64,000 nt of DNA from a virus. How positions within the stretch are numbered: position 1 is the first letter of the stretch; the number at the start of each line of letters is the position of its first letter. Positions 5,148-52,252 of the stretch are shown one piece after another. Where the stretch lies: the UHGV virus genome UHGV-0125682; one strand, written 5' to 3'. The position numbers and the translations under genes were made by a program. The notes beneath the pieces were generated by a model, which ran no database searches, was not told the DNA's origin, and saw only the letters and a list, made by a program, of their open reading frames with translations.

Positions 5148-5159
5148 CGTTGAATCGAT

Positions 5160-9670: not shown

Positions 9671-9916
9671 CATGCCGTCGTAGCAAATTCTGCGACCGGG
9701 TTTGACAGCCTGAATACTTACGCGGACAACCGCACATTTCCGATATTGCGGTATTTTTGTGTCCGTAAAACCACGTTACGCCCGAATTATGGTGGGGCGT
9801 GATGGGGAGGCTTCGGCCTGCTGGTTTCGTAAGTGCCAGTCTGTCAACCCTGTCACGTCCTGCCACCTGTTTGACAGCGGGTCGCAGGTTGTTTATCAAC
9901 TTACGAGGCCGTAACT

Positions 9917-22982: not shown

Positions 22983-23059
22983 GATGGTGTAGCTCAGTAG
23001 GATAGAGCAGCAGCCTTCTAAGCTGTCGGTCGGTGGTTCGAATCCACCCACCATCGCCA
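22983..23059 (+). tRNA. tRNA-Arg (anticodon UCU)
   Basis: Manual cloverleaf fold: 7-bp acceptor GATGGTG/CACCATC, TTCGAAT T-loop, anticodon loop CTTCTAA, encoded CCA. Confidence 0.85.
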
Positions 23060-23061
23060 AT

Positions 23062-23137
23062 GCCGGTTTAGCTCAGTTGGTAGAGCGCCTGCCTTGTAAG
23101 CAGGATGTCAGCGGTTCGAGTCCGTTAACCGGCACCA
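23062..23137 (+). tRNA. tRNA-Thr (anticodon UGU)
   Basis: Manual fold: acceptor GCCGGTT/AACCGGC, anticodon loop CTTGTAA, T-arm AGCGG-TTCGAGT-CCGTT, CCA. Confidence 0.85.
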
Positions 23138-23146
23138 ACACAACAG

Positions 23147-23220
23147 GTAAGGGTATTTTGCGACGTCGGAGATCGCCGTGCTTGGCAGAGGGTTCGAATC
23201 CCTACGAAGTACCCTTACCG
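23147..23220 (+). ncRNA. tRNA-like element or tRNA pseudogene
   Basis: 10-bp terminal stem GGTAAGGGTA/TACCCTTACC enclosing AGGG-TTCGAAT-CCCT T-arm-like hairpin, but spacing is non-canonical. Confidence 0.3.
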
Positions 23221-23775
23221 TTGTGATGAAGTGCAGCTCTTTGAAGCAACCAGAAGATAAGCATCTGGCTTCACAACATAAACCGCAGGAACGACCAATA
23301 AACGGTAGTCCGTATGGAGAACACCCCGTTGAGGAAGAGGCCTGGCCGGAACCGTAACCGGCACTACAACGTTGAGAACACTGGCGTAACGGGGTCATAT
23401 CCCAATCTATGAATAAATGTTGCGTTGCAGCGTGACAACCAGTGTTCTCAACATTGTGGTGAATGCGCAGGCTGATGCGCGAAAGACATTGCAGCTATTG
23501 CGGAAAAGAGCTGTTCGGCGGGGCAATTAAACGCCCGTGAGAGTCTGAAATAACCGCAAGCCGGAGATCAGCACCGGTCGCCACAATAACGGGAGAGTAG
23601 GGAGCATGGTGCTCAAGCAGTCTTGAAAACCGTCCCATTGCGCACGCGGAACAGTTAAAACAATCCTCCTTAGTGGTTAAGTCAAACATCCCGGCGTTAA
23701 TTGTTAACTGGTTAACGTCACCTGGAGGCACCAGGCACCGCAGCTTTTTTATTCGTTAAATAATGGAGTGAGAGG

Positions 23776-24012
23776 ATGCAGAACAATCCGAACAAATGTC
23801 GAACGCTATGGGTGCGGTTATATATTTATGTCGTCCTCTGTTTGATTGTGTCACTGGTTCTGTATGTTTGGCTTTTGCCAAATATGATCTCATCTGACAG
23901 CACAATACTTGTATTGTTGGGAGTCCTTCTCGCGCTCATTTACCCGGCTTTTGCAGTAGTCTTTTTTCGTGAAAAAACCAGGAAATTGATTAATGAAAAA
24001 AACGTTGATTAG
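23776..24012 (+). CDS. small membrane protein (78 aa)
   Basis: GAGAGG RBS; two hydrophobic helices. Confidence 0.5.
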   Translation: MQNNPNKCRTLWVRLYIYVVLCLIVSLVLYVWLLPNMISSDSTILVLLGVLLALIYPAFAVVFFREKTRKLINEKNVD

Positions 24013-24820
24013 TGCAGCGATTATTTTTGGTTCTTTATGTCTGACCGGATGCGACCGGGTAGAACCAGGCAATGTAGGGATCAAAGTAAATAAGCTGGGG
24101 GATGATAAAGGTGTCGGCGAAGTAGTTGGCGTTGGTCGCTACTGGACAGGCTGGAACACAGAAGTTTATATCTTCCCGACCTTTAAGCAAATGAAGACCT
24201 ATGATGATCCGTTCAGCTTCCAAATGAGCGACGGGACAACAATTGGTTACCACATTGGTGTAGCTTACAAGGTTGATCCGGCAAAAGTCACAACTGTATT
24301 TCAGACCTACCGCAAAGGCGTGGATGACATTACCGACACCGACCTGCGCCAGAAGATTGCCGACGCACTTAACCGACTGGCCAGCAAAATGACCACCGAC
24401 AAATTTATCGACGGTGGCAAGTCTGAACTACTGGATGCAGCTCTTAAAGACATCCAGGAAGAAATGACGCCCATCGGTATTCAGGTAATGAGCCTCTCAT
24501 ATGTGGGCAAGCCGGAGTACCCGCCAACCGTTATCGACAGCATTAATGCCAAAGTCACGGCGAACCAGAAAACTCTGCAACGCGAGCAGGAAGTCAAGCA
24601 ACGCGAAGCAGAAGCCAACATGCTGCGCGCAGAAGCTGCCGGACAGGCCGATGCCATTCGCACAAAAGCCCAGGCTGAAGCTGATGCCATTCGTTTACGC
24701 GGTGAGGCTCTGCGCCAGAACCCCGGCGTTATGGAGTTGGAAGCGATCAACAAATGGAACGGAACGCGACCGCAGTATATGACCAGTAATACCGCTGTTC
24801 CGTTTGTTCCGGTGAAATAA
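23993..24820 (+). CDS. plp: SPFH/band-7 domain lipoprotein (Plp-like)
   Basis: Signal peptide with lipobox LCLTGC; coiled-coil Ala/Glu-rich C-terminus typical of SPFH proteins. Confidence 0.65.
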   Translation: MKKTLISAAIIFGSLCLTGCDRVEPGNVGIKVNKLGDDKGVGEVVGVGRYWTGWNTEVYIFPTFKQMKTYDDPFSFQMSDGTTIGYHIGVAYKVDPAKVTTVFQTYRKGVDDITDTDLRQKIADALNRLASKMTTDKFIDGGKSELLDAALKDIQEEMTPIGIQVMSLSYVGKPEYPPTVIDSINAKVTANQKTLQREQEVKQREAEANMLRAEAAGQADAIRTKAQAEADAIRLRGEALRQNPGVMELEAINKWNGTRPQYMTSNTAVPFVPVK

Positions 24821-24833
24821 CCAAATAGAGAAC

Positions 24834-24965
24834 ATGATGGAATTTTGGACGTTTGCCGACAAGAACCCTTGGTGGACATTTTTATTTCTGCTGGTGGTTG
24901 CATATGGGGTCGAGCAAGCAGCAAAAGCCTTACGCGGTCCTGGCAAAAAGCGTAAGCGGAATTAA
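24834..24965 (+). CDS. small membrane protein (43 aa), not in ORF track
   Basis: ATG ORF with one hydrophobic helix and basic tail. Confidence 0.35.
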   Translation: MMEFWTFADKNPWWTFLFLLVVAYGVEQAAKALRGPGKKRKRN

Positions 24966-24974
24966 CAGTAATCT

Positions 24975-25050
24975 GGCCCTTTAGCTCAGTGGTTAGAGCT
25001 GGCGACTCATAATCGCACGGTCACCGGTTCAAGTCCGGTAGGGGCCACCA
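24975..25050 (+). tRNA. tRNA-Met or tRNA-Ile2 (anticodon CAU)
   Basis: Manual fold: acceptor GGCCCTT/AGGGGCC, anticodon loop CTCATAA, T-arm ACCGG-TTCAAGT-CCGGT, CCA. Confidence 0.8.
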
Positions 25051-26579: not shown

Positions 26580-26972
26580 ATGGAGCATATCAGCAGCGCA
26601 GAAATTGCGGATATCATGATTAGGGCTGACTGCTATCTGACAGTCACCGAAATCACCACTCTAGCTAAAGAAAAATATCCTCACCTTCATGTTTCACGCG
26701 TAAGTGTAACCAACATCATTCGGCATTTTGTGCGGTCAAGCCGAGCTATTTGTGAGCTTGATGATCGTGTTTACCCACGGAAATACTGGTTGCATGGCCT
26801 GAACGGATATCAGTTCAAGGTGCGCGGGCGCACGCCTGAATACGGTAGCTTACTGGTTAAAAACTGTAGCAGGAAATCAGTCGAACAGGCGCGAAAAGAG
26901 CAACGAGAGCTGGTGGACATGGCGAATAAGCTGTGGAATGCCGCCGTTAAAAAGCGTGGTGTTGCTTTATGA
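26580..26972 (+). CDS. hypothetical protein, possible late-gene activator (Lpa position upstream of pacA)
   Basis: Position only; stop overlaps pacA start. Confidence 0.35.
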   Translation: MEHISSAEIADIMIRADCYLTVTEITTLAKEKYPHLHVSRVSVTNIIRHFVRSSRAICELDDRVYPRKYWLHGLNGYQFKVRGRTPEYGSLLVKNCSRKSVEQARKEQRELVDMANKLWNAAVKKRGVAL

Positions 26973-28333
26973 GTCTGGTTAATTGGGAGGAGCACCGCGC
27001 CCGCTTTATAGCGTTGCGTGAAGAAAAAGGGATCACTGTAAAGGAATACTGTGAGGAGCATGGCCTTAGCTTCAATACAGCCAGAAAGCATCTCAATATG
27101 AAAAAAAATGAGGTGCGGTCGCAGGTAAAGACAACAAAAAAAAGCACCAAATCACCTGAAAAAAAACGGGCGGGAAGAGCAACAAAAAAGCTGGAAGAGG
27201 GTGCAGAAAAAACAAAATTTACAGAAATTGACAATTCGCAGGGCGCAGGTTCTTTCCGAAGTATGCCGAGAAAGAAAACTTCGGATCATGAAAATAATGC
27301 AAATAATAACAATGAGATAAAAGAATCTGTCAGGAGATCATTGCGCGAAAAAATGGCGAAAATGATCCCCGAAGAAGATAAAAGCGCCCCAAAAATTGAG
27401 GGATCTTCAGCAATGATCCCTGGCGGTGCTGTGCAGCGTGCCACATTGCCCACTACGAATGTGGCTCGCGATATGATGAAGAACGGCGCAGAAGAACACC
27501 TGCGGTTAGCAATTCAAATGGCGCAAGAGCGCGCACTTCAGTATCAAAGCATTGTTGATCAGGAGGCCGAACGTCTACAGGCGGAAATAGACGCCTTGGG
27601 CGATAAAGAGCCAGAAGGAATGCACCCTGGGCAGCGCCTTCTCGGTCTAATCAGTGACGCTGCCTACTACATGAATGATTTTATCAGTAGGTTGGCAGCT
27701 ATATATCAGTCCGAACAAAAGCTGCGACAGGGGGATGAAAAGCTTCGTCAGAGCGCTCGCCAGCAAGCATTCAAAGAGGCTGAGGCCAGAGAAAAACTCG
27801 AATTAGCACGCCTACAGGCCGAACAGCGTGGCAAAGAGATTGAATATCGCATTGGCGCTGACGCACGCGCAGCCAGAGTTATCGCCGCCGCTATACGTAT
27901 GCGTGAGCGCGAGGAACTGGATGATATCAGTGTTGCTGAATACATCGAGCGCCAGGGGGTCAGCGTCCCGGCTATCCTCGCGGCGCGCGCGGCGAAAGCT
28001 ATCACTCTTCTCGAACCACCTGTTTCTGACGTCAATGATGTTGATGATGAACAGCTGGACAAAGAGGCAAGGGAGTTTGCAACGCTTCAGGCTAACCATC
28101 CGCAATGGCTGGCAGAGCGCCGGGCGGATGTGGCAACCATTGTTGAAGAATTGGGGTGCGGAGATTACGACCGCAATGGCGAGCGTAAAGCTGGAGAATT
28201 CGAGGCCAACGACGAAGAGCTGGATATTGACCCTTCGGCAACGGCTGAAATTTACGGTGATTATGATGCATCTGATGCAGGGTATGACGCCGGAGATGAT
28301 GATATCGCGATAGAACCGCCGGAGGATGATTAA
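26969..28333 (+). CDS. pacA: terminase small subunit PacA-like
   Basis: Immediately upstream of and overlapping terminase large subunit; N-terminal HTH-like segment; contains GATC cluster. Confidence 0.65.
   Translation: MSLVNWEEHRARFIALREEKGITVKEYCEEHGLSFNTARKHLNMKKNEVRSQVKTTKKSTKSPEKKRAGRATKKLEEGAEKTKFTEIDNSQGAGSFRSMPRKKTSDHENNANNNNEIKESVRRSLREKMAKMIPEEDKSAPKIEGSSAMIPGGAVQRATLPTTNVARDMMKNGAEEHLRLAIQMAQERALQYQSIVDQEAERLQAEIDALGDKEPEGMHPGQRLLGLISDAAYYMNDFISRLAAIYQSEQKLRQGDEKLRQSARQQAFKEAEAREKLELARLQAEQRGKEIEYRIGADARAARVIAAAIRMREREELDDISVAEYIERQGVSVPAILAARAAKAITLLEPPVSDVNDVDDEQLDKEAREFATLQANHPQWLAERRADVATIVEELGCGDYDRNGERKAGEFEANDEELDIDPSATAEIYGDYDASDAGYDAGDDDIAIEPPEDD
27280..27420 (+). promoter_or_regulatory. 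candidate pac site (GATC cluster)
   Basis: Five GATC in 135 bp (27284, 27336, 27364, 27402, 27415), two as TGATCC, inside pacA. Confidence 0.45.
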
Positions 28334-29841
28334 TGGCTGGCGGGCGCAAGATTAAATGCGTCACCAGCGATCCACGCTGGCGCGATATGGTAATCAAATA
28401 CCGCTACAACTTTACCCAAGCTGTTGTCGATATTTTTGGGATGTTCCCCTCCCACCAGCAGCAGCAGATCATTCAGTCAGTGCAGGAAACGGGGAGTAGG
28501 ACTACCGTCACGTCCGGACACGGAACGGGGAAGTCGTCCCTTACCGCGATGTTGCTGTTGATTTTTATGATCCTGTTCCCCGATGCCCGTGTCATCATTG
28601 TTGCTAACAAGATAGGCCAGGTAAAAACAGGCGTATTCAAATACGTTAAACAGTATTGGGCGAATGCAGTTAAGCGTCATGGGTGGTTGCAGACCTATTT
28701 TGTCCTCTCTGACACCATGTTTTATGAGCGCTCCCGTAAGGGGATTTGGGAAGTTCTCTGCAAAGGTTATCGACTCGGCAACGAAGAAGCGCTGGCGGGG
28801 GAACATGCGGCACATTTGCTTCTAATTCTGGATGAAGCATCTGGTATATCTGATAAGGCGATCGGCGTAATGACCGGTGCTCTTACTGAAGAAGATAACC
28901 GGATGTTGATGCTATCCCAGCCAACAAGGCCAAGTGGTTATTTCTACGATTCGCACCATTCTCAAGCAAAAACCCCAGACAACCCGAAAGGGATCTGGAC
29001 AGCAATTGTTCTTAACTCGGAAGAATCACCGTTCGTCACACCACAATTCATCAAGCAGAAGCTTCTGGAATATGGCGGGCGCGATTCTATTGAGTACATG
29101 GTCAAGGTGCTTGGTCAGTTCCCACGAGAAATTAACGGCTATTTGCTTGGTCGTGATGAATGCGATCGCGCAGCTCGCCGCAAGGTGTTGTTGGAGAAAA
29201 ACTGGGGATGGGTGGCAACGGCTGACGTTGGTAATGGGCGAGATAAGTCGGTCCTCAACATCTGCAAGGTATCTGGTCACAGGGATAAGCGGCGCGTTGT
29301 TAACTTTAAGGTAATGGAGATGCCTGGCACTATGGACCCATTGGCCTTTGCTGACTTCATATATAACGAATGTACGCCGGAAAAATACCCGAATATAACA
29401 ATCGCGGTTGATGCCGATGGTTTTGGTTCTGATACGTGTGCGCAGTTGGTGCGTCGTGGTGCGAACCCGGTACGTATTCGGTGGGGAAAACCCATGTTTG
29501 CAAACAAAGACAGGGAGCGATTTGTTAATCAGCGTGCCTACGCAAATATTATCGCGCGAGATGCCATAAAGTCAGGGCGTATGCGGATAGACAGTGACCC
29601 TAAAACGGCAGAGCAAGCGTCAAAAATCCCCTTTTTACTGAATGAAGAAGGGAAAATGGCGATGATGCGCAAAGAGCACATGCGGCAAAAGCTAAACATC
29701 AAATCGCCTGACCGATGGGATACCTACTGCTTCACTATGCTGGTGGACTATGTGCCTGCTAATGAAGATATTGGTGCCGAAATGGCAACTTTTCGGGATC
29801 AGGTTCTGGCGGATATCGAAATGCCGGATCTGGATATATAA
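28333..29841 (+). CDS. pacB: terminase large subunit PacB-like
   Basis: Walker A SGHGTGKSS, Walker B LLLILDEASG, C-terminal acidic nuclease-type residues (AVDADGFGSD). Confidence 0.85.
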   Translation: MAGGRKIKCVTSDPRWRDMVIKYRYNFTQAVVDIFGMFPSHQQQQIIQSVQETGSRTTVTSGHGTGKSSLTAMLLLIFMILFPDARVIIVANKIGQVKTGVFKYVKQYWANAVKRHGWLQTYFVLSDTMFYERSRKGIWEVLCKGYRLGNEEALAGEHAAHLLLILDEASGISDKAIGVMTGALTEEDNRMLMLSQPTRPSGYFYDSHHSQAKTPDNPKGIWTAIVLNSEESPFVTPQFIKQKLLEYGGRDSIEYMVKVLGQFPREINGYLLGRDECDRAARRKVLLEKNWGWVATADVGNGRDKSVLNICKVSGHRDKRRVVNFKVMEMPGTMDPLAFADFIYNECTPEKYPNITIAVDADGFGSDTCAQLVRRGANPVRIRWGKPMFANKDRERFVNQRAYANIIARDAIKSGRMRIDSDPKTAEQASKIPFLLNEEGKMAMMRKEHMRQKLNIKSPDRWDTYCFTMLVDYVPANEDIGAEMATFRDQVLADIEMPDLDI

Positions 29842-29869: not shown

Positions 29870-30907
29870 TTACCAGAGCTTCGCGGCGTACTGCGTTTGG
29901 GGGAATGTGTATCCGTAACGTTCTTCGATTGCTTTGCCGTATTTTTTACGAGCTTCATTCAGTTTAATGCCGGTCAGGTCGTCTCCAGAGGCCATCATTA
30001 CGTCTAACAATTCCAGATCCATTTTATCCAACCTTGCCATTGCTTCACGTGATGTACGTATCTTACGCTCAATGATATGGCGAATAGCCGGATCGGCATC
30101 CTCCAGCATCTTAGCGGATTTCTGCTTAAGGCTTTCATTGCGAATATCGATGTTCCTTAAGATGTACGACTTCGCAACGTAGCTTGGCTGGTGTTTTTCC
30201 AGGTCACGAACACGATATAAGTTAAAATCGCCGAGAAGGCTGCATGGTACCGATTCGACGCCAGAATAAATTGTAATGCTCCGGCGTTCACCAACATTAT
30301 TGACAACGGGGATCGTTGTCTTCGGTAGTCTTGCGAAAACCAATGCGCCATGTGCGCCAACTCTAAAGCGAGAAAGGGCATTGCTGCCTTCGATGTTTGT
30401 TGTCAGCACAACATCTGTATATGCCTCTTTACGCGCCCGGTAGATCTCGCCTTCAGGCTCAGCTTCAAAGAAGCGCTGTTCTTCTTCAAGAGCACCTACG
30501 ATTTGAGAAAAAACCCTATTTTTCAGGCTTTTCTTTATGATTTTGTCGTATTTTTTTAGCAATTGTTCACGTGTAAATGTACGTGTTGTTGTAGCGCTTT
30601 GCACAACGACATGCGTGCTTTGATTGGTGTCCTCAATGATGAATGGGATCGGAGAATATACAGACTCAACAATGTTCGACGCTTTGCCGTCGGCATCGCG
30701 GCACATGTCAACGAAGGCTTTCCATTCAGCAAGACATTTTTCAGCTTCTTCTAATATGTTTTGGTCATGCGTTAATGCAACATGGCGGAATTCCTCGCCA
30801 GCATAACTGGTATCATGGAAAACAGAGTTTGCGACCACCAGCTCTTTCCACCGTTCAGCGGTTTGCAGGAACCGTTTGTACTCTTTCTCGATCGACTTCT
30901 TACTCAT
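29870..30907 (-). CDS. hypothetical protein in the P1 c1-equivalent position (candidate immunity repressor)
   Basis: Only gene between pacB and the rox-like site; operator copy 14 bp upstream of its start. Confidence 0.4.
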   Translation of the reverse strand: MSKKSIEKEYKRFLQTAERWKELVVANSVFHDTSYAGEEFRHVALTHDQNILEEAEKCLAEWKAFVDMCRDADGKASNIVESVYSPIPFIIEDTNQSTHVVVQSATTTRTFTREQLLKKYDKIIKKSLKNRVFSQIVGALEEEQRFFEAEPEGEIYRARKEAYTDVVLTTNIEGSNALSRFRVGAHGALVFARLPKTTIPVVNNVGERRSITIYSGVESVPCSLLGDFNLYRVRDLEKHQPSYVAKSYILRNIDIRNESLKQKSAKMLEDADPAIRHIIERKIRTSREAMARLDKMDLELLDVMMASGDDLTGIKLNEARKKYGKAIEERYGYTFPQTQYAAKLW

Positions 30908-30920
30908 TATTCCTACTCGA

Positions 30921-30940
30921 TTTAGTTTTCTAACATAAAA
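30921..30940 (+). promoter_or_regulatory. operator-like repeat
   Basis: tttagttttctaacataaaa. Confidence 0.55.
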
Positions 30941-31106
30941 TTACTATGACAAATTTATGTCGAATAACAGGGTGAGTAAAGGATCGAACTGTGATTTTTT
31001 GTCATCAATTTTAGAAAACCAACCGTAGAAACCACACTTCGCAAATTAAAGACCATGAAGGCAACGTGTTACTGGTCATCATCAATCTATGATGGATTAA
31101 AAAAAA

Positions 31107-31138
31107 TCGGCATTTTATAACTTTAAATAATTGGCATT
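31107..31138. other. rox: rox/lox-type recombination site (14-bp arms, 4-bp spacer)
   Basis: TAACTTTAAATAAT-TGGC-ATTATTTAAAGTTA, perfect inverted arms, 164 bp upstream of cre-like gene. Confidence 0.8.
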
Positions 31139-31153
31139 ATTTAAAGTTAGGCT

Positions 31154-31159
31154 ATAATC
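31154..31159 (+). promoter_or_regulatory. possible -10 element for recombinase gene
   Basis: TATAAT directly downstream of the recombination site. Confidence 0.3.
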
Positions 31160-31301
31160 ATGTGTAGATGAACAGTGTTGACATCACTGAAAATACGTGC
31201 CTCGAATCAAAGGCTTGTATTTTGAAAATTAACTTATAGCTACCCTGTCATTTTTATATTTTTCGCGTAGCGTCATCTGTATATAGAGGTCAAATAGTTT
31301 C

Positions 31302-32330
31302 ATGGGCGAATTAATTATCTCTGGCAGTTCCGGTGGTTTTCTGCGCAACATTGGCAAAGAGTACCAGGAAGCCGCAGAAAACTTTATGCGGTTCATGAAT
31401 GACCAGGGAGCTTATGCGCCGAATACTCTGCGCGACCTCCGTTTGGTGTTTCATTCCTGGGCGCGCTGGTGTCACGCTCGCCAGCTTGCCTGGTTTCCGA
31501 TCTCACCAGAAATGGCCCGCGAGTATTTTCTTCAGCTGCATGATGCCGATCTGGCTTCGACCACCATTGATAAGCACTACGCCATGCTGAACATGCTGCT
31601 TTCGCATTGTGGCCTTCCACCACTTTCGGATGATAAAAGTGTTTCTCTGGCTATGCGGCGCATCCGGCGCGAAGCGGCAACTGAAAAAGGCGAACGAACA
31701 GGCCAGGCTATACCGCTGCGGTGGGACGATCTGAAACTGCTCGACGTCCTGTTGTCCAGGTCTGAACGGCTGGTGGCCCTGCGCAACCGGGCTTTTCTCT
31801 TTGTTGCATACAATACGCTGATGCGTATGTCGGAAATCTCGCGTATTCGTGTAGGAGATCTGGACCAAACAGGTGACACTGTCACGCTACATATTTCACA
31901 CACGAAGACAATAACGACCGCCGCCGGGCTTGATAAGGTGCTTTCCCGTCGCACTACCGCTGTGCTGAATGACTGGCTGGATGTTTCCGGGCTTCGCGAA
32001 CATCCTGACGCAGTGCTGTTCCCGCCGATACACCGTAGCAATAAGGCCAGGATCACGATAACGCCCCTTACTGCACCTGCAATGGAGAAAATATTCAGCG
32101 ACGCCTGGGTGTTGCTGAATAAAGGAGATGCTACGCCAAACAAAGGAAGATACCGGACGTGGACCGGGCATAGTGCACGCGTCGGGGCCGCTATCGATAT
32201 GGCTGAAAAGCAGGTCTCTATGGTGGAGATTATGCAGGAAGGAACCTGGAAGAAACCGGAAACACTTATGCGGTATCTGCGCCGTGGCGGCGTGTCTGTG
32301 GGGGCTAATAGCCGCCTGATGGATTTATAA
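31302..32330 (+). CDS. Cre/Dre-like tyrosine site-specific recombinase
   Basis: Alignable with Cre along its length (WFPxxPE, MRRIRRE, AFLxxAYNTLxRxxEIxRIRVxD, SGHSARVGAAxDMA, catalytic Tyr region MRYLR). Confidence 0.9.
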   Translation: MGELIISGSSGGFLRNIGKEYQEAAENFMRFMNDQGAYAPNTLRDLRLVFHSWARWCHARQLAWFPISPEMAREYFLQLHDADLASTTIDKHYAMLNMLLSHCGLPPLSDDKSVSLAMRRIRREAATEKGERTGQAIPLRWDDLKLLDVLLSRSERLVALRNRAFLFVAYNTLMRMSEISRIRVGDLDQTGDTVTLHISHTKTITTAAGLDKVLSRRTTAVLNDWLDVSGLREHPDAVLFPPIHRSNKARITITPLTAPAMEKIFSDAWVLLNKGDATPNKGRYRTWTGHSARVGAAIDMAEKQVSMVEIMQEGTWKKPETLMRYLRRGGVSVGANSRLMDL

Positions 32331-32349
32331 ATTAAATTTCTAACACATC
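32331..32349 (+). promoter_or_regulatory. operator-like repeat
   Basis: attaaatttctaacacatc upstream of 32404 operon. Confidence 0.55.
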
Positions 32350-32403
32350 TTTTTAGATTAACATCTTTGCTGTAAAGTACCCTCGCCTATTTAGGAGGGT
32401 GCT

Positions 32404-32748
32404 TTGCAGAGTCAAATCACGGAATCAAGACGCTTCAAGGTGGATGGTTACACCGTAACCTTCGCCGCTGGTGTTAAGAACAGTCATGCTGTCGTTGTGT
32501 TCGGCATCATGACCGGGCTTGAGGCCGTCCCTGTGTTTACCCTCGAAAAAAACTGGCGAAATCTGGAGGAAGCAGAAAGCTACGTCCGGAAAGTAACCAT
32601 CATTGCCGCCGAAAAACTCCTGGCCCACTATCAGGAAAATTATCGCACTATGGTCGAGAAGATTAATCTCGCTTTCACTCGCCCCACTACCGGCTTTATT
32701 GCACCGGATACTAATGCAGGTCGATATCCTGCAAGGGGGCGTCGGTGA
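32404..32748 (+). CDS. hypothetical protein (114 aa)
   Basis: ORF, first gene of operon. Confidence 0.5.
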   Translation: MQSQITESRRFKVDGYTVTFAAGVKNSHAVVVFGIMTGLEAVPVFTLEKNWRNLEEAESYVRKVTIIAAEKLLAHYQENYRTMVEKINLAFTRPTTGFIAPDTNAGRYPARGRR

Positions 32749-33221
32749 AAACTTATTACCCATCTCTGAATTGTTACCCGTCTTCCTATCCAGAATTATC
32801 CGGGAAGCTGTTAGCTCTATTAGCTAAAGCACCTACGGAATGGTTTAAGCCAGTCGTTATCAATCCACACTTCCTGGATTACGGATCTGTTCGCACTCGT
32901 AACGAACTCAAAAACCTACTGGCGCATGGATTCATTCGACACCGTGCCGGGAAAGGCTATCAGTTAGCGATTGCGCCAGAAGAGGCCGTGCGGCTATTCG
33001 CATATCGTGACAGCCAGACAAAAGCTCGGGTAATAGCTCAAATACTTCTTAACGGCAGCACCTATGCCCGCCAGTTTGGCGGCGACACGTCGCAGTTCTT
33101 GCGGGCGGTGCGATCGCTGGAGGAGCAAGGGGTTATTGAAAGTTCCTGTCTTCCTGTTCCTACCGTTCCACATATCAAACGTCGGGTTTACACCTTCACG
33201 CAGAGAGCTAAAAAACAATGA
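32745..33221 (+). CDS. hypothetical protein (158 aa)
   Basis: Overlapping stop/start. Confidence 0.5.
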   Translation: MKTYYPSLNCYPSSYPELSGKLLALLAKAPTEWFKPVVINPHFLDYGSVRTRNELKNLLAHGFIRHRAGKGYQLAIAPEEAVRLFAYRDSQTKARVIAQILLNGSTYARQFGGDTSQFLRAVRSLEEQGVIESSCLPVPTVPHIKRRVYTFTQRAKKQ

Positions 33222-33712
33222 TTTACGTAAAAGTGAAACGCCTACATCCGGCAGCAAAACTTCCAGCTTATGCCACCTCCGGATCGGCGGCGATGGATTT
33301 TGAGGCTGTTGAAATAAAACCATGCGTCGATAGCAATGGTGCAATTTCCTCAAGCTGGTGGGTGTACACCGGACTGGCTATGGAGATCCCGCCCGGCTGG
33401 TGTCTGAAACTCTATCCGCGCTCCGGATTGGGCTGCAAAAAACATACTCGCTTGGCTAACTGCGTAGGAATTATCGACTCCGATTATCGCGGTGAAATCA
33501 TGGCAAAACTGATTACTGATCCAGGCGGGGAAGTCGTTCGTCTCAAGCCTGGAATGGCTGTCATGCAAGGCATTTTTGAGCGTGTTGAACAAGTCTCACT
33601 AGTCGAGGTTGAGGAACTCAACGAAACGGAGCGTGGTGCTGGTGGCTTTGGTAGCACATCGGAAGGCCACTTTGAAATAAAGCGTTCACCGCTTCAGTAC
33701 GAAAAGTTATAA
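33218..33712 (+). CDS. dut: dUTPase (trimeric dUTP diphosphatase)
   Basis: dUTPase motifs GSAAMD, GIIDSDYRGE, ERGAGGFGSTS. Confidence 0.85.
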   Translation: MIYVKVKRLHPAAKLPAYATSGSAAMDFEAVEIKPCVDSNGAISSSWWVYTGLAMEIPPGWCLKLYPRSGLGCKKHTRLANCVGIIDSDYRGEIMAKLITDPGGEVVRLKPGMAVMQGIFERVEQVSLVEVEELNETERGAGGFGSTSEGHFEIKRSPLQYEKL

Positions 33713-33726: not shown

Positions 33727-34494
33727 ATGAATAACATGAAAACAATTCAATACCGCTTGCGTAATGGCCTGCTGGTGGCTGTTAACGCCGACATGTCACT
33801 GCCGTTTGACACGATTGAACGCACTATCATGACGTATCTCGGCTTTAATGAAGAGCTGAATGAAGAGCATGGCGTAGCTATATGGAGTGATGCAGAAAGC
33901 GGCGTTCATCGTTACATCACCGCCAGGGGCAAAGACTACTCTCTTGAAGAACTGTTTACCCTTGCACAGTCTTTCGAATGTGTAGCATTAGACCTGTTTA
34001 ATGATCCTGCTATAGCGCAACGACTTATACGCGAGTTTGGGCTATCCGTTACACCAATTATCTTTAAAAATGGCAGCCTGACTGGCACATGGCGCGTAGA
34101 ACGCATCTCAAACTACCTTCCATATAACCGACAGTTAAATGGAGTAATCTCCGGCGTTAATCAGCCCGTAGCGTGTGAAAATGTAAACCTGGTTGTCGCT
34201 GTTTTGGCAACCGCATGTCGTGTTATCGGTTTGGCTAAACAGGCATTTATTCATTTCCCAAATGGTGCAGAAGGTAGCGCAGAGATTATCGCGTGTGATT
34301 TCGAATTTACCTGGATGCTACGCGAATATCTGGACCAAACAGTATTCCGTGCCGAAGAACTGGATATGTATATCACGTCAACGATTCCAGACGATGTGCG
34401 AGCTGAAGCAATCGCTACAGCCAGGGCGAAATGCCGTGCGGCGATTGCAGAACAGGCCAAAGAAGAAGTTAAGGAAGTGGCAGATGGCGACTAA
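33727..34494 (+). CDS. hypothetical protein (255 aa), coupled to terminase paralog
   Basis: Stop overlaps start of downstream gene by 11 nt. Confidence 0.5.
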   Translation: MNNMKTIQYRLRNGLLVAVNADMSLPFDTIERTIMTYLGFNEELNEEHGVAIWSDAESGVHRYITARGKDYSLEELFTLAQSFECVALDLFNDPAIAQRLIREFGLSVTPIIFKNGSLTGTWRVERISNYLPYNRQLNGVISGVNQPVACENVNLVVAVLATACRVIGLAKQAFIHFPNGAEGSAEIIACDFEFTWMLREYLDQTVFRAEELDMYITSTIPDDVRAEAIATARAKCRAAIAEQAKEEVKEVADGD

Positions 34495-35578
34495 GAGCAA
34501 TATTTATAAAGATCCGCGCTGGCTGTCGCTGGTGGAGAAATATAAAGACAATTGGGTACTGGCAGCAAAAGAATTGTTTGATATTGATTTAAGCCACCAG
34601 CAACAACAAATTGTTGAAGCTATACAGCCCAATAATGCAAAAGCTACTGTCACCACTCCGTATGGGATCGGACGACCGCAAGTGCTTGCTGTTATTAGTA
34701 CCCTTTATACGATTATGTATCCTGATTCCCGGACAGTAATTGTTTATCCAAAATCAAATGTTTGCAAAAGAGGAATTGTTGCATATGTGTGGCAATGTTG
34801 GGAGGCATTGCTGAAAAAACAACCTTTTATCATTGAGTATTTTAAGGTCGGTGATAGCGGTCTGATGTTCAATGAATTTTGGGGAATGTGCTTTTGTAAC
34901 TACCGCCTTAACTATGAAGATAGCATTGCAGGTCACTACGCCGACCATCTTTTATTCATTATTGTGGATTCCGCACATATCAGCGATCGGGCATACAGCA
35001 TTGTGTGGGCAAGCATGACTAGTGGTGATTCACGCATATTGCTCACTTCAATTCCGTCACCAGAGGAAATAGGCTTTTTTTATGATTCACATCATGGACG
35101 TGCTTTAGCTGAAGATAATCCGAGTGGTGTATATAAAGCCATTAAGCTGAGTGCGGAGGATTCACCATTTATTACCCAAGAATATCTTGATCATTTTGCC
35201 GAAAGGTATGGCGGGCGAAATAGTGATGACTATCGTCGTATGATTCTTGGTGAGTTCCCTGGTATTAGGGAGGCTGTTCTTGAATCAGATATGCCGAAGA
35301 CAATGCGCTTTTCGATGCCTGATGGTAGTGAATGGACAATGCCATTACGAGTGATAGCCCGGCATCATGCGCAGCACCACGCCAAAAAACATGGCGTCAC
35401 AACATTAGAATGGTTGAAATCGCACACTATTCCACTCTTCACTGCAGATCACAATGCTATCGTTGAGTGGGCAAAAACAATTCCGTGGGAGCATGTCGCT
35501 GAATATGCTCACATGCTAAAACCGCCGAAAGACAGGCACGAAATTAGCTGGCTGACAGCCGAAAAAATCATTGAATGA
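34484..35578 (+). CDS. terminase-large-subunit ATPase-domain paralog with degenerate Walker motifs, no nuclease domain
   Basis: Aligns to PacB residues about 20-260 (SHQQQQI, DSHH, EDNPxG, SPFxT, YGGR) but Walker A reads YGIGRPQ and Walker B reads IIVDSAH; start reassigned to ATG 34484 with AAGGAAG RBS. Confidence 0.7.
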   Translation: MATKSNIYKDPRWLSLVEKYKDNWVLAAKELFDIDLSHQQQQIVEAIQPNNAKATVTTPYGIGRPQVLAVISTLYTIMYPDSRTVIVYPKSNVCKRGIVAYVWQCWEALLKKQPFIIEYFKVGDSGLMFNEFWGMCFCNYRLNYEDSIAGHYADHLLFIIVDSAHISDRAYSIVWASMTSGDSRILLTSIPSPEEIGFFYDSHHGRALAEDNPSGVYKAIKLSAEDSPFITQEYLDHFAERYGGRNSDDYRRMILGEFPGIREAVLESDMPKTMRFSMPDGSEWTMPLRVIARHHAQHHAKKHGVTTLEWLKSHTIPLFTADHNAIVEWAKTIPWEHVAEYAHMLKPPKDRHEISWLTAEKIIE

Positions 35579-35582
35579 TAGT

Positions 35583-35614
35583 AAGAAGCCCGCCTGGTTG
35601 AGCGGGCTTCTTTT
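35583..35614. terminator. intrinsic terminator between convergent genes
   Basis: gaagcccgcctggttgagcgggcttc hairpin plus TTTTC. Confidence 0.7.
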
Positions 35615-35994
35615 CAAATATTGGAACCATATAGTTCACGTAGTTTTTTCGCTACTGAAGATACGGGGATTTCACCAGTTGCAGCCCCCACTGCAAGCTC
35701 CACCAGCACGGGATCATCATATACCTGTATACCGTTACGGCGTAGAAATAGCAGCGCACTGTTTAGCGCGGTACGCTTATTGGCATCATTGAATATATGC
35801 CCTCTCGCCGTAGCCACCAGGTAGGTGGCGGAGACTTCGAAAAGGTCGGTGATCTCTTCGTAGGCAACTCTGGCCTGAACTCTCCCGATAATGGCCTCTG
35901 CCCTACCCGGATCTGACATTCCCGGCAGGCCGCCGTAGCGGCTTATATTCGCATCATGAAGCGCAATAAGTTCTTCCGGTGATATATGCCTCAT
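35614..35994 (-). CDS. doc: Doc toxin (Fic-fold)
   Basis: Near-identical in my recollection to P1 Doc ([22 protein letters not shown]...). Confidence 0.9.
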
Positions 35995-38080: not shown

Positions 38081-39569
38081 GGTCCGCCTCATGCTTTTCA
38101 GCCACCAGCGGCAATAAAGCCCTGGCCATCTTATGAACCAATAGTGCATCAATAATGCCAAGCGTATGCCCCGGCTTAATGTTTAATGCCGCCTCAAGGT
38201 GACACCTTTCCAGGCCACTTTTCTCGGCTTGTTTATGATGATCTGGTGTAATAACGTCGCCCAAAACACGGCTAATTCTTTCTCGTAATTGCTGGGTGCC
38301 AGCACACTTGATCGCTGTATCGTGGAGACGGTTAACCAGTTCGCGATAAACATGCGGCTTAATTCGGATACGTTCACCGGTGACGCCCTTTCCTGGTGCT
38401 GGCACCGAACTATCCGGAATATCCGGATAGTTGCCTGCCAGTCTACGCAAAACGGCCTTAACAGCCTCAATACGGTCATCATCGCAATTTTCCAGCGTAT
38501 CTATGCGATCGAGCATGATGATGGCGTTATCAATATCAGGATTGCCGGTCCACTCATTACCGCGATTGGATTCGGCAGCCTGGTTGCCGCGTACTGGTTG
38601 ATTATCGGCTTTACCCAGTCTGTCGTTGCTGCATGAATGCCCTTCCAGCAAGGCCAATGCTTGTCGCATGAAATACGCAATATGTTTGCCGTGGTAATCG
38701 TCTTCATCGATGTGAAAAGCGATACTGCGGATGTATTCAATTGCGTTTTCAATGGCCTCCGGCGTTATCGGCGCTGACATATTTTGATTTTGGAGTGCCA
38801 AGACGCGACTGGCATCCTCAACGTTCTTCACTGCATCTGCGCAGTAGTTATAGCGATTGCATTCCACTAACTTCTGCTTGAGATTTTCAATTGCTTGCGC
38901 GACATCAGCCTGTATTTCCGGAACTGGCGGAACGGCTGTCTGCTGCTCTCGAACGTCATTAGTCGCTATCGGTTCTGCTGCCAGCTGACTGGCATATTTG
39001 TTAATGGTAACGATAAGCTCTTGCTCGGCCTCATCCAGACAATCACCGATACCTCGCCTGTCACCGTCAAAATCATCGAAATCGGCACGAATCTTGGCAA
39101 CCTTCTGGATTGCGGACAACACCTCACTAGGAATTACCGGATAGTTGGTTGACGTTTCCGCGATTTCCCGAAAATTATTGGTTGACGAATTCTTGTTTTC
39201 CCGAAAGTTTCCGGACTGAAGCATGGCTTCGCGGCAATCGTTCCAGCCTGTAGCGTATGCAGCCGCTTTGCTGCTGCCTTCAACTGGCGCATCCTGCCAA
39301 TACATTTCTTCCGGCACTACCTGCACCTGAGGGGTGGCGTAGAGTGGAATTCCTCCCCCTCCACCAGAAAATTCATTGCGAGCGTTATACTCACGACCAT
39401 CTGCGTCATCACGCATCCACGCCACCGGTTCTGCTTCCAGCGATGCCAGCGCGATACGAAACACATTGGCAAGCAGGCTGTCTGAAGATTGGTTATCGTG
39501 CGCCGGGTCGCTCAGGAAGCCTGTGATGAATGATTTAATCTCCGCACGTTCTTTGGTAATAGTGGTCAT
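38064..39569 (-). CDS. hypothetical protein (501 aa)
   Basis: Shares a YRELVNxLxD...GTxQLRER segment with 48042..48656. Confidence 0.5.
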   Translation of the reverse strand: MTTITKERAEIKSFITGFLSDPAHDNQSSDSLLANVFRIALASLEAEPVAWMRDDADGREYNARNEFSGGGGGIPLYATPQVQVVPEEMYWQDAPVEGSSKAAAYATGWNDCREAMLQSGNFRENKNSSTNNFREIAETSTNYPVIPSEVLSAIQKVAKIRADFDDFDGDRRGIGDCLDEAEQELIVTINKYASQLAAEPIATNDVREQQTAVPPVPEIQADVAQAIENLKQKLVECNRYNYCADAVKNVEDASRVLALQNQNMSAPITPEAIENAIEYIRSIAFHIDEDDYHGKHIAYFMRQALALLEGHSCSNDRLGKADNQPVRGNQAAESNRGNEWTGNPDIDNAIIMLDRIDTLENCDDDRIEAVKAVLRRLAGNYPDIPDSSVPAPGKGVTGERIRIKPHVYRELVNRLHDTAIKCAGTQQLRERISRVLGDVITPDHHKQAEKSGLERCHLEAALNIKPGHTLGIIDALLVHKMARALLPLVAEKHEADHANES

Positions 39570-39579
39570 GTGTTACTCC

Positions 39580-39843
39580 TTAACCCGCAGTGCTTTCAAC
39601 TGATGAGGGGAACAAAATCTTTTCATCAAACCCTGCATTCATATCATGAACAGCAACACACCAATCCATCGACGAACGATTATCAAGAGCCTCCATGATT
39701 TCATCCATGCGGCGCAGGTCATACAGGTAAATGCTTTTATCGCCAATGGTGTAAAAGCCAATTTTTTTCGGTGATGGACAGCGATCAAGAACGTCCTGTA
39801 ATTCGTTCAACCATGCCCGTTCTTTTTTTGTTAAAGTTGCCAT
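39580..39843 (-). CDS. hypothetical protein
   Basis: Start reassigned to MATLTKK with AGGAGAG RBS. Confidence 0.45.
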   Translation of the reverse strand: MATLTKKERAWLNELQDVLDRCPSPKKIGFYTIGDKSIYLYDLRRMDEIMEALDNRSSMDWCVAVHDMNAGFDEKILFPSSVESTAG

Positions 39844-40205
39844 ATCACTCTCCTTTAGTGCGCAAATGGTTTTTCCAGCGGTTTTGCGCCGCGCTGGGCT
39901 TTTTGCAAAAACCACAATCCATCATCCCGTAATATTTCATCAACCCCATCCGTCGGTTGCTGAGTCTCACCCACTGCCAGACGCCAGGAGCGTTTCTACG
40001 AACTAACAGAATCTTTGCTTTACGGTTTTTCATCGCTTTGCTCTCCTGCGTCTCTTTGCTGCTCGTCGTGCCGCTGCAATACCGGTATGGCGGCGCTTTG
40101 GTGCCGGGATGATGTTGTCAGCCATCAGGACATACGGCTTTGCAATTAGCGCAGAAGCCCAAAAACGAGTCGGGTACGGTAACAAGCCGATACATGCCAC
40201 ACGCA

Positions 40206-40967
40206 TTACTCACCTCCTTTGATGCGAATGCCTGCAGCGCGGATTGCAGCGATGACTTCAGAAACTTTGTATGCCATTACCGTTTGGTAATCATCGTGAA
40301 AATCTGTTCGATGAAGCATGCTGCTACGTTCCGGGAGCGATATTTCCCGAGCATCCAGTTCCTTAACGCGTTCCTCCAGTTCGTAGACCCTGCATTGTTC
40401 TCTATCATCAATCAGATATAACCCAAGACATTCGCTTTCTACCCAACCGCCAAAATCATGATCGTAACGCTCACATGAAAACTCACCGTCACCGTCCTTT
40501 GTTGGAATGGTGTAACTATCTAATGGGCCACCATATGTCGGCACATTTCCCAATGTTGGATGCTCAATCCACATGAAAAATGCACGTCCGGTTATTGGGC
40601 AAATATCTGGCCGCCATTGGTTACGAACAGCCTTGGTTTCGGATAATTCTTCAGCGTGTTGTTTTACTTCCTCAAGCTCAACTCTCAGCTTCCCTACCGT
40701 TAGCGCAATATCCTCGTTCTCCTGATCGCGGCGTTTTATGTATTGCTGGTTTCTTTCCCGTTCATCCAGAAGCGCCAAGACGGTAGCCGGATTGGCTGCG
40801 GCGATGAATTCAGCATCACGAGATTCGTTTTCACTGAACACCATAGCTATTTGCTCATGGTTTATGCCGTCAGTGGAGTAAATCTCATCGTCGAATTCAA
40901 CAGCCCACTTACCTTTCGTAGCCTTCTCTGCCGCCTCACGCAGTGCCTGATAGTCAATCTTGCTCAC
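40206..40967 (-). CDS. Ead/Ea22-like protein
   Basis: N-terminal MSKIDYQALREAAEKAT signature. Confidence 0.55.
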   Translation of the reverse strand: MSKIDYQALREAAEKATKGKWAVEFDDEIYSTDGINHEQIAMVFSENESRDAEFIAAANPATVLALLDERERNQQYIKRRDQENEDIALTVGKLRVELEEVKQHAEELSETKAVRNQWRPDICPITGRAFFMWIEHPTLGNVPTYGGPLDSYTIPTKDGDGEFSCERYDHDFGGWVESECLGLYLIDDREQCRVYELEERVKELDAREISLPERSSMLHRTDFHDDYQTVMAYKVSEVIAAIRAAGIRIKGGE

Positions 40968-41268
40968 TGGCAGCCTCCTTTGCCGGGATTTCTAACTTTT
41001 GAGTGGTTGTATCAAATTCAAACAACTTAACCACGTCATCAAACAGGACATAATCACCATCAGGATCTTCAGTCATATCTGCGCCACAATCCTGACCGCA
41101 CGAGTCGCAACCATCCATATCAAGCTCGTATCGCTTCAGGTTTGCGATATTTGATAAATTCAGCGCCAGTACAGCCAGGTCATAAACCTCTTCGGCAGTG
41201 ACATCGCTGTTCAGTCCCATTTCATGGCGATATATGATTTTTTCTACCCGTTGTTTTGTGATTGTCAT
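40954..41268 (-). CDS. hypothetical acidic protein
   Basis: ORF. Confidence 0.45.
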   Translation of the reverse strand: MTITKQRVEKIIYRHEMGLNSDVTAEEVYDLAVLALNLSNIANLKRYELDMDGCDSCGQDCGADMTEDPDGDYVLFDDVVKLFEFDTTTQKLEIPAKEAASEQD

Positions 41269-41765
41269 TTTTGCTCACCTCCCTGTTCTTCCAGAAAAAT
41301 ACGCATAGCCTCAAGCATCTCTTCGGTGTCATACGGTGACAACTTGTCACGCAGGATGTGTTCAATGCTGTTAATGAACTTGCGGATTGCTTTGCGTTCA
41401 ATTTCAGCCAGGAAAGCGTCGGTGGCTGACATATTTCCTGTTGCCTTCATGGCCTTCAAAATAACCAGAACGCCATCTCGCCCAACCACCTCAGCGATAA
41501 CCTCAGTGTTGTCGCCAACAACATCGCAGAATGCCTGAACTGCCTTACGAGCCAGCTCATTCTCCACTGCCAGCGCCGCGCACTTGGCCTCAAGAGCGGC
41601 AACCACTTCCTGATGGTCTTTGTACTTAACGTATGAGCCGGAGATGTCATCACCTTCGGTGTTTAGCCATGCGTCATTGCAATTCACTGCGTAGGTTCTG
41701 ATGCTCATGTTGATGCTCTCCCGCCCCTGACAGACGCCAGGCCAGTCAATAAAGTATCCGCACAA
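41265..41765 (-). CDS. hypothetical protein (Ea22-like C-terminal region), start uncertain
   Basis: Overlaps an Ea22-like N-terminal fragment ORF (41705..41890) in another frame. Confidence 0.4.
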   Translation of the reverse strand: MCGYFIDWPGVCQGRESINMSIRTYAVNCNDAWLNTEGDDISGSYVKYKDHQEVVAALEAKCAALAVENELARKAVQAFCDVVGDNTEVIAEVVGRDGVLVILKAMKATGNMSATDAFLAEIERKAIRKFINSIEHILRDKLSPYDTEEMLEAMRIFLEEQGGEQK

Positions 41766-41876
41766 TGCCTACCCTCAGACGTGCGCGCAGGATAAATGCC
41801 GTTATGACCCGGCAAAATATATGCTACCCATTCATCTTGCGTTGCCTGTTCCGCCGCCTCGCGCAGTTCTTGATAG

Positions 41877-42578
41877 TTAATTTTGCTCACTGGTTGCCCC
41901 CTGAATACGCTTAAACTCGATTACCCACACCCAAGGATTAGCGTTCCAACTATCTTCGCCATAAATTGATTTCCATAGGCTACGGAAACATGGGTAATGC
42001 TTATCGCCAATGAGGGTCGATTCTGTTGGTGCGCCCTCAGCCCTTGCATCGCATTCGCTGATATCGTTCAACCGCTCAACGCGCACGTTGGTAATTTCCA
42101 GAAGAATGCGCGATGCCCAGCGCGGCATGTGAATTGATGGACACCACCCGCCATCAAATTTTTCATTCACAGTGTGAGGTTTCCAGTCGGCATCATCGGG
42201 TATCGACCACAAGCCGTAATCACCCGGCTTTTGCTCACAACTGGCCCGATAAATCCTTGCTGCGTTCTTCTCATCGCCACGACAAAGGTTGTCGTTCCAG
42301 TCCACACTGCAACCATCCTCATTGCCTAATATCGCCCACGCCTCACGGACCCATATGCGATCACCAACGTTACCGAACGGGCATAAACCATGTTCAGGTG
42401 CATCCATAACGTGGGTATAGACACCATTGCGTTTCTTTGTCGGTTTACGGATAACCAGGCAGTTATCGGCCCTGACATTTTTTACAGGTCGGCGAGTCTG
42501 CGTCTTCCTTCCTTCGAGGATGGCCCTGACCATCTCATCGTTAAAAATCATCCCGCGTTCTTTCATTTTTTGATCCAC
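41877..42578 (-). CDS. hypothetical prophage protein
   Basis: ORF. Confidence 0.5.
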   Translation of the reverse strand: MDQKMKERGMIFNDEMVRAILEGRKTQTRRPVKNVRADNCLVIRKPTKKRNGVYTHVMDAPEHGLCPFGNVGDRIWVREAWAILGNEDGCSVDWNDNLCRGDEKNAARIYRASCEQKPGDYGLWSIPDDADWKPHTVNEKFDGGWCPSIHMPRWASRILLEITNVRVERLNDISECDARAEGAPTESTLIGDKHYPCFRSLWKSIYGEDSWNANPWVWVIEFKRIQGATSEQN

Positions 42579-42582
42579 CTCA

Positions 42583-46052: not shown

Positions 46053-46846
46053 TGGCTGCCTCCTTTGCGAAGCTGTTCAGCGATATCTTCGAGAACGCCA
46101 TCAGAGAATGAGCGGTCAAAATCGCCTTCCCGCGCATTAGCCATAAACTCAGTAGAGGTAAGAATCATCCGGGCAATATCCGCGGCGTTCTTCGCAGTAT
46201 CATCAATAAAACCAGCTTCCCAAGCAGCCAGCATTCTGTTCGCCACAAAGTAAGCGCCCTCCTTGCGTGCTTCAGTCTTCACTTCATCCAGGAAAGTGTC
46301 GGTCGCAGGAGTGGTTTTTTGTGGTGATAGGGCGATACGAATTGTTTCAAGAGCTGGATCTATTTCCACTGTTGGCACTTTGATAAAACCAAGCTGCACG
46401 CCATTCATAATGAACGTGCGGCGATCCTCACATATCGCCTTCAGTCTCGCATTCTCCGCAGCCAGCGCCGCGCGATTACCCTCCAGCTCTGCAATGCGCT
46501 GTTTTGCGGTATCAAGTTCAATCGATAATTTTTCCAACTGCTCTTTATGCTTCTTATATTCCTGATATGCGTGCCAGGACTGACCTTTGCGCACACTATC
46601 AGTAATATCAGTAATCTGTTCTGGTGTTAGCGTAGTCAGTGGCTGTGCTGGGAAAATCAGCACTTTCCCGGAATCCCAATCAAAACCAGCGTGAATTGAC
46701 TGAACCTCAACTGAGGGTGTTGAACCAATGCTGCCAGGCGAATGAACAACGATCGTTACATCCATATCGCGACGATGGCTGTGGTTGTTGGACAAAATAC
46801 GATTCACCAACTCAGAAAATTTGGAGAATTTCATGCGGAGCCTCAA
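46049..46846 (-). CDS. Ea22-like protein
   Basis: C-terminal ...AEQLRKGGSQ module. Confidence 0.5.
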   Translation of the reverse strand: MRLRMKFSKFSELVNRILSNNHSHRRDMDVTIVVHSPGSIGSTPSVEVQSIHAGFDWDSGKVLIFPAQPLTTLTPEQITDITDSVRKGQSWHAYQEYKKHKEQLEKLSIELDTAKQRIAELEGNRAALAAENARLKAICEDRRTFIMNGVQLGFIKVPTVEIDPALETIRIALSPQKTTPATDTFLDEVKTEARKEGAYFVANRMLAAWEAGFIDDTAKNAADIARMILTSTEFMANAREGDFDRSFSDGVLEDIAEQLRKGGSQ

Positions 46847-47253
46847 TATGCAAAATAGACCGTTGCCACGCCGTTATAGTGATCAAACGATACGGCGTTT
46901 ACTTCATAGCTGGCAGGGAGCTTCGATCCGAGAACATATCCGGGCCACGTTTTCCATGGAATTTCTCTACTCTCACTATCCCCATATACCGTACATCCAA
47001 GTGAACCTACAGCTTCATTAGAACGCGTGCCGCACGTTATGAATCCCAGATTTTGCTTACTGCTCTTAATGGTGATTGAGTGAACGCTGGCTGATGCATT
47101 AGCAGCACGCTGTGCCTGTTGGTTTGCGATATTCGCAGAGTTCGCAGCAGCTACAGCAGCCGTAGTCGCGGCGGTAGAGGCTACAATAGCTGCTGAAGCA
47201 TGCACTTGTTGGATATTCACCAACAATGCCGCGACAAAAATCATCTTCTTCAC
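46843..47253 (-). CDS. secreted protein with signal peptide
   Basis: N-terminal signal sequence MKKMIFVAALLVNIQQVHA. Confidence 0.5.
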   Translation of the reverse strand: MKKMIFVAALLVNIQQVHASAAIVASTAATTAAVAAANSANIANQQAQRAANASASVHSITIKSSKQNLGFITCGTRSNEAVGSLGCTVYGDSESREIPWKTWPGYVLGSKLPASYEVNAVSFDHYNGVATVYFAY

Positions 47254-50003: not shown

Positions 50004-50315
50004 AACACTGACTGTTGCGCCCTGGCATTATCGTGGGGTATATTTCTACGGCACCTTAGAAAAACGGGTGCCGGGATTGGAACCCCGGATAATGCAAAAG
50101 GCGACACAGACGCCGAAAGCGTCTTTTTTTGTGTCATGCCATCGCACAGCCATACGTAGCGTTTAGCTCAGAGATCAATGGTAGTGCTGGCTGGGCTGCC
50201 GAAAGGCAGGCCGGTTCCCTTTTGCGCCGGTAGTTCCAACCCAGTCAGTGCTACCGCCATTGAGATTGGAACCTCACGCGGTAGCTCCTTAAATTAGCAA
50301 AAGGAGGCTGCCAAT

Positions 50316-52232: not shown

Positions 52233-52252
52233 TTCTGCCTCCGCTGCGTAAC

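Follow-up and report, generated by a model that had tools for sequence, protein, structure and literature searches.

Dre/rox is a relative of Cre/loxP and a widely used genetic tool. Positions 4909-4940 of the D6 immC region (AY753669) are annotated as the 'region of crossover (rox) site for Dre recombinase', and the native D6 form of the site has been printed as (A)TAACTTTAAATAAT TGGC ATTATTTAAAGTTA(G) (PMC3082901). The reverse complement of rox, TAACTTTAAATAATGCCAATTATTTAAAGTTA, which contains AATGCCAATT, has also been published (PMC4777119). Dre and Cre do not recombine each other's sites, Panto recombines rox and Dre recombines pox, and an arginine, a proline and a lysine at Cre positions 43, 259 and 263 make Cre recombine rox (PMC4957104). 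P1 Cre has been described as a multimer resolution system (PMC10999674) and is annotated as 'cyclization recombinase' in the P1 record. D6-like plasmid prophages are documented (PMC6799933), and the presence of Dre/rox in E. coli strains has already been noted (PMC4957104).

The locus described here lies in a 64,000-nucleotide stretch of viral DNA (the window) and is very probably the native Dre/rox site-specific recombination module of a D6-like phage-plasmid. An initial annotation had marked positions 31107-32330, a span that does enclose rox and the dre reading frame, starting 11 bp upstream of the site and ending at the stop codon. The system is, as that annotation held, a known one, the Dre/rox of D6 that has already been described, and its occurrence here is an ordinary finding. 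Its expected usefulness, mainly for identification, agrees with the results, since this locus ties the window to the D6-like phage-plasmids. The points of minor interest are that the target is far more conserved than the enzyme, that rox overlaps a strong promoter-like element, and that rox acts as a switch point of relatedness between lineages.

The rox site

The site occupies 31118-31149 on the plus strand and consists of 32 bp (TAACTTTAAATAATTGGCATTATTTAAAGTTA), divided into a left arm, TAACTTTAAATAAT (31118-31131), an asymmetric TGGC spacer (31132-31135) and a right arm, ATTATTTAAAGTTA (31136-31149). The 14-bp inverted repeats of TAACTTTAAATAAT around TGGC/GCCA that characterise rox are matched exactly at this position; the two arms are 100% complementary and form a perfect inverted repeat around the asymmetric 4-bp centre. 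The functional 8-bp crossover region proposed in PMC4777119 corresponds here to ATTGGCAT at 31130-31137. The naming of this site as rox in the initial annotation is confirmed by its identity to the published rox and to the annotated D6 site (AY753669, 4909-4940), flanking A and G included, which is also the native form printed for D6; identity to D6 extends about 30 bases on each side. The same annotation placed the site in reverse orientation, which holds only against the commonly printed form, as relative to dre the orientation is the native one.

Within the 64-kb window, TAACTTTAAATAAT-TGGC-ATTATTTAAAGTTA has this sole match with up to three mismatches allowed, and the chance expectation is 0, based on 100 dinucleotide-preserving shuffles. 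No extra rox half-sites were found in the window at up to two mismatches, and loxP (ATAACTTCGTATA-N8-TATACGAAGTTAT) has no match in it at up to three mismatches.

The dre gene and its product

The dre gene, located at 31302-32330 on the plus strand (32330 being the last base of the stop codon), begins 152 bp downstream of rox and encodes a Cre-family tyrosine recombinase of 342 amino acids. In a BLASTP comparison with D6 Dre (AAV84949), 337 of the 341 aligned residues are identical without gaps, and the unaligned residue 342 differs as well, leaving five substitutions: S2G, D159A, T253I, R275G and S342L. With an identical site and a protein matching at 337 of 342 positions, alignment to published Dre and rox reveals no substantial divergence. 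The description of the recombinase as Cre-like throughout is equally sustained: phmmer matches PDB Cre at E = 1.3e-67 over residues 22-341, and Pfam assigns Phage_integrase (PF00589) at 59.8 bits against a curated cut-off of 27.1. The PDB search returned no Dre structure, its best matches being Cre chains.

The catalytic residues R175, K202, H290, R293, W316 and Y325 are all intact and are invariant in 25 of 25 homologues. Five of them (R175, H290, R293, W316 and Y325) are listed in PMC4777119 as counterparts in Dre of Cre active-site residues; the sixth, K202, comes from alignment to Cre. The rox-specificity residues R44, P259 and K263 are also present. Compared codon by codon with D6, dre carries 30 nucleotide differences, 25 synonymous and five non-synonymous, giving a dN/dS of 0.06, and is therefore under strong purifying selection. 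Across 31000-32400, 39 nucleotide differences separate the two in 1401 bp, most of them synonymous. All five substituted columns vary across the family, and four of the five substitutions recur as natural polymorphisms in other alleles. We infer from these features that the allele is active on rox. It is a naturally occurring Dre with five substitutions whose target has not changed, and as a tool it adds nothing beyond standard Dre.

Genomic context and kinship with D6

The terminase genes pacA (26969-28333, plus strand) and pacB (28333-29841, plus strand) were assigned from their reading frames, the D6 annotation and collinearity, with a weak Terminase_6N match for pacB; together (26969-29841) they lie about 1.3-4.1 kb upstream of rox. 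The prophage repressor gene c1 (29870-30907, minus strand) is an open reading frame that is divergent from dre and aligns with D6 c1, and dut (33218-33712) follows downstream of dre and two small open reading frames. The resulting order, pacA, pacB, c1, rox, dre, two small open reading frames and dut, is exactly that of D6. The rox/dre locus marks the conventional zero point of the map of this D6-like phage-plasmid.

Aligned with the 91-kb D6 genome, the window forms a single collinear series in reversed direction, covering 50,750 of 64,000 bases (79%) at 94-98.7% identity, and the 21% without a D6 counterpart is distributed over a dozen segments. The suggested placement in or near the D6 lineage can therefore be narrowed to near: judged from its sequence, the element is a D6-like phage-plasmid and not D6 itself. 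The region 31000-32400 is 97.2% identical to D6 and up to 98.6% identical to E. coli plasmids of about 90 kb. The locus was matched in 144 plasmid records (Escherichia, Salmonella and Shigella) and, among 5,426 complete E. coli genomes, in 124; about 100 plasmids of these three genera carry the same Dre/rox module.

Rfam identifies two P1-type C4 antisense RNAs, isrK and three tRNAs in the window. The C4 copies lie at 9664-9870 and 50051-50261, accompanied by the a1b1 target and isrK, and their number points to two antirepressor modules of the immI type, in agreement with D6, where two icd/antirepressor pairs are annotated. The tRNAs, located at 22983-25050, are Arg(tct), Thr(tgt) and Met(cat), while the D6 annotation lists Ser, Thr and Asn; the segment 23743-24832, adjacent to this set, has no D6 counterpart. 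The larger mosaic segments lacking a D6 nucleotide match are 2871-5593, 38932-39838, 40063-42580, 46075-47476, 51803-52818 and 61409-62849.

Another segment absent from D6, 1.16 kb long (34468-35623), encodes a 366-aa protein at 34478-35578 on the plus strand. Over 258 aa it shares 37% identity with the PacB of the window, in the ATPase half at the N-terminus. Both nucleotide-binding motifs are degenerate in this protein, Walker A changing from GHGTGKS in PacB to PYGIGRP and Walker B from LLLILDEAS to LLFIIVDSA, while its C-terminus is unrelated to PacB and it has no Pfam match. Some P1 records (MH422554, MH445380) contain a homologue about 52% identical to it as a second copy. The protein may be a catalytically dead terminase paralogue.

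Site and recombinase across relatives

Viral contigs were scanned for exact rox arms with any spacer, yielding 23 loci that were oriented by tblastn anchoring on the recombinase. Twenty of these loci contain a Dre homologue (68.9-99.7% identical) whose start lies 152-153 bp from the site, and the remaining three end too near the site to contain the gene. Alignments show the rox arms as an invariant island, the upstream flank becoming unalignable among relatives. The c1, site, recombinase and dut layout is kept by more distant homologues, and a c1 gene (Pfam Phage_P7_repressor_C1) adjoins diverged Dre homologues too.

The natural spacers are TGGC, which is the majority form, TAGT, TAGC and GGGG. 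TAGT stands, between perfect rox arms, beside a group of homologues about 89% identical to Dre, carried on plasmids (L004, CP123678, and L006, LR130553, 2817-4029; L005, CP026816). TAGC was observed beside a 69% identical recombinase (L014, 3706-3737), and GGGG, in one contig, beside a 98.5% identical one (L021, 12405-12436). The exact rox with TGGC also occurs beside a recombinase only 63% identical, in a metagenome contig (L033, 1316-1347). A 66% identical enzyme is accompanied by a site with one arm mismatch, and a 51% identical enzyme (L035) by a site with different arms. On alignment, the DNA target is thus far more conserved than the enzyme across these relatives, which fits the published cross-reactivity of Dre with the 52% identical Panto.

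The homologue of about 89% identity was observed in a Shigella phage-plasmid in which the rox arms carry two mismatches, and as an isolated module between IS5 and IS26, beside a class 1 integron, on IncF-type resistance plasmids; about 90 plasmid records belong to the class of 80-95% identity. Among the genome contigs scanned, exact rox arms were matched once, in an uncultured Clostridia MAG (L008, OZ007016.1, 6381-6412), where they flank a TAAT spacer inside a longer AT-rich perfect palindrome. No Dre homologue is present in its 8-kb locus. With this palindrome, its TAAT spacer and no Dre homologue, the site was rejected as a true rox and is probably an unrelated look-alike hairpin.

A promoter-like element and a conserved leader

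A putative promoter directed toward dre, TTGGCA-16-TATAAT, overlaps rox at 31131-31158 on the plus strand and is a near-consensus sigma-70 match. Its -35 hexamer, TTGGCA (31131-31136), covers the rox spacer and the first base of the right arm, and its -10 hexamer, TATAAT (31153-31158), lies 3 bp beyond the right arm, separated from the -35 by a 16-bp spacer. It is the sole sigma-70-like site found in 30850-32450 and the sole match of at least 11/12 in the window on both strands, with 1.28 expected per window. The -10 hexamer recurs at the same offset beside the sites of homologues 51-99% identical, and the -35 is weak in the TAGT, GGGG and 55% variants. The promoter reading is built on consensus matching and conservation, and the overlap of the -35 with rox suggests a possible autoregulation of dre by site occupancy. 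In the papers searched, nothing relevant turned up on a promoter overlapping rox or on autoregulation by Dre.

Between rox and dre, a conserved leader block of about 60 nt, ACTTATAGCTACCCTGTCATTTTTATATTTTTCGCGTAGCGTCATCTGTATATAGAGG, extends over 31233-31289 on the plus strand and ends in GAGG (31286-31289), the ribosome-binding site of dre. This block is about as conserved as the rox arms and is nearly invariant even beside the 69% homologue (L014). A conserved RNA structure was considered for the leader and rejected, the consensus energy being -4 kcal/mol with no compensatory pairs; it is possible that the block serves as a protein-binding or promoter element. An imperfect inverted repeat, AAAATACGTGCCT / AGGCTTGTATTTT, was observed at 31190-31223, where it was flagged as terminator-like on the minus strand and is partly conserved in relatives. 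In two loci whose recombinases are 51-55% identical to Dre, clusters of TGATCA (Dam) sites lie in the interval between site and gene (L034, 1320-1360; L035, 1390-1412); these resemble the Dam-regulated P1 cre promoters, whereas the D6-type interval is without any GATC.

Proposed mechanism and biological role

The mechanism follows the chemistry established for Cre-family tyrosine recombinases, together with published work on Dre. Each 14-bp arm of rox would be bound by one Dre monomer, and a Dre tetramer would synapse two rox sites. Tyr325, helped by R175, K202, H290, R293 and W316, would then cleave and exchange the first strand pair to give a Holliday junction, after which the second strand pair would be exchanged, with no cofactor or accessory protein required. 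The asymmetric TGGC centre would set the polarity of rox and hence its directionality. As an addition proposed here, with the -35 of the dre promoter inside rox, bound Dre could limit its own transcription.

Because of the analogy with P1 Cre/lox and the identical genome position, the roles of Dre/rox are likely to be DNA circularisation and dimer resolution. Injected terminally redundant linear DNA would be circularised when rox falls in the redundancy, and dimers of the plasmid prophage would be resolved so that partition works. A P1-type pac cluster of TGATCA/G hexamers was sought in pacA, where one hexamer only was found, with window-wide counts at chance level; the packaging geometry therefore could not be tied to rox.

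The site also coincides with a breakpoint of homology. One viral contig (L031, IMGVR_UViG_2585427777_000008, site at 2148-2179) changes its relatedness to the window here: identity is 69-94% left of rox but 98-100% on the right-hand side, and the change comes at base one of the left arm. D6 shows a smaller, opposite step, being 99-100% identical to the window on the left and 96-98% on the right. A relatedness switch as sharp as a base pair is the trace that recombinase-mediated exchange between co-resident phage-plasmids would leave, and the pattern is consistent with Dre-mediated exchange between co-resident elements or lineages.

Alternative explanations

The simplest objection, that an AT-rich palindrome arose here by chance and has nothing to do with the recombinase, can draw on the Clostridia look-alike, which combines exact rox arms and a TAAT spacer with an 8-kb locus devoid of a Dre homologue. 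It can nonetheless be dismissed outright for the window: no such site is expected there by chance, the sequence equals the experimentally defined rox, and relatives share a fixed spacing between site and dre. Dre/rox is also a common laboratory tool, so that vector DNA contaminating an assembly might be suspected; yet the locus sits inside 64 kb of collinear D6-like phage DNA, differs from D6 by its 39 natural and mostly synonymous nucleotide changes, retains the native intergenic sequence and its c1 neighbour, has equivalents in about 100 natural plasmids, and shows no vector backbone adjacent to it, leaving contamination a negligible probability. Slightly more weight, although still very little, can be given to a module that is present with a crippled allele, as part of a decaying gene, through D159A and the other changes. 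D159A is private to the window allele among the 25 close homologues sampled, D159 being invariant in the other 24, and the aligned Cre residue is Asp as well. Against this, the reading frame is intact with the low dN/dS given above, every catalytic and specificity residue is retained, and column 159 is variable in a 107-member family alignment (D43, E20, Q15, N11, A7), six members besides the window allele having Ala. The closest relative of the window protein (L028) differs from it at residue 159 alone. D159A was rejected as an inactivating change given the variability of this column.

A different weighting would give rox a mainly transcriptional function, as promoter or operator of dre, and recombination a secondary place; the two functions are non-exclusive and both are possible, and this reading is regarded as plausible but the less probable one. 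It is favoured by the 11/12 sigma-70 match, the only one in the window, whose -35 falls on the spacer and whose -10 lies three bp past the arm, by the conservation of the -10 beside diverged sites, including that with different arms (L035), and by P1 being without an annotated promoter overlapping lox. Published work shows, however, that rox is fully sufficient as a target of recombination (PMC4777119, PMC3082901, PMC4957104), and natural spacer variants keep perfect arms but have a degraded -35, which indicates that selection acts first on the arms. Ordinary mosaicism bounded by the conserved rox site, instead of Dre-mediated exchange, could likewise account for the breakpoint pattern. Alongside the preferred reading of a native Dre/rox recombination module, a broader proposal may be offered tentatively, with less than even confidence: rox might double as the -35 and operator of the dre promoter, Dre occupancy throttling dre, and the spacer variants (TGGC, TAGT, TAGC, GGGG) with perfectly conserved arms might define partly incompatible exchange groups among D6-like phage-plasmids, rox being the junction for swapping genome arms.

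Comparison with known systems

The closest system is Dre/rox of D6 (AY753669, MF356679; Sauer and McDermott 2004, cited in PMC3082901), which shares with the window the same 32-bp site, the same flanks and the same orientation relative to the gene. The site-to-gene distance of 152 bp and the neighbours (pacA, pacB and c1 on one side of rox, and dre, two open reading frames and dut on the other) are also the same, as are the catalytic and specificity residues, although the protein of the window differs at 5 of 342 positions. The two genomes as wholes are mosaic relatives.

Cre/loxP of P1 belongs to the same protein family and fold as window Dre, the match extending over the full length (E = 1.3e-67). 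Cre-type plasmid genes are about 41% identical to window Dre by tblastn, making the window protein a homologue of Cre and not Cre itself. The position in the genome, beside c1 and pac, is the same, and the presumed roles are the same. In contrast, loxP has a 13-8-13 structure (34 bp) with arms different from those of rox, and the P1 interval between lox and cre, about 420 bp, contains cra and three Dam-regulated promoters, none of which overlaps lox, while the interval between rox and dre in the window is 152 bp, has no GATC and bears a promoter-like element overlapping the site.

In Panto/pox of Pantoea sp. aB (PMC4957104), the recombinase is of the Cre type and has the same R/P/K specificity residues, and the inverted repeat is near-identical. 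Panto is about 52% identical to Dre (PMC4957104), and its spacer and host replicon differ from those of the window.
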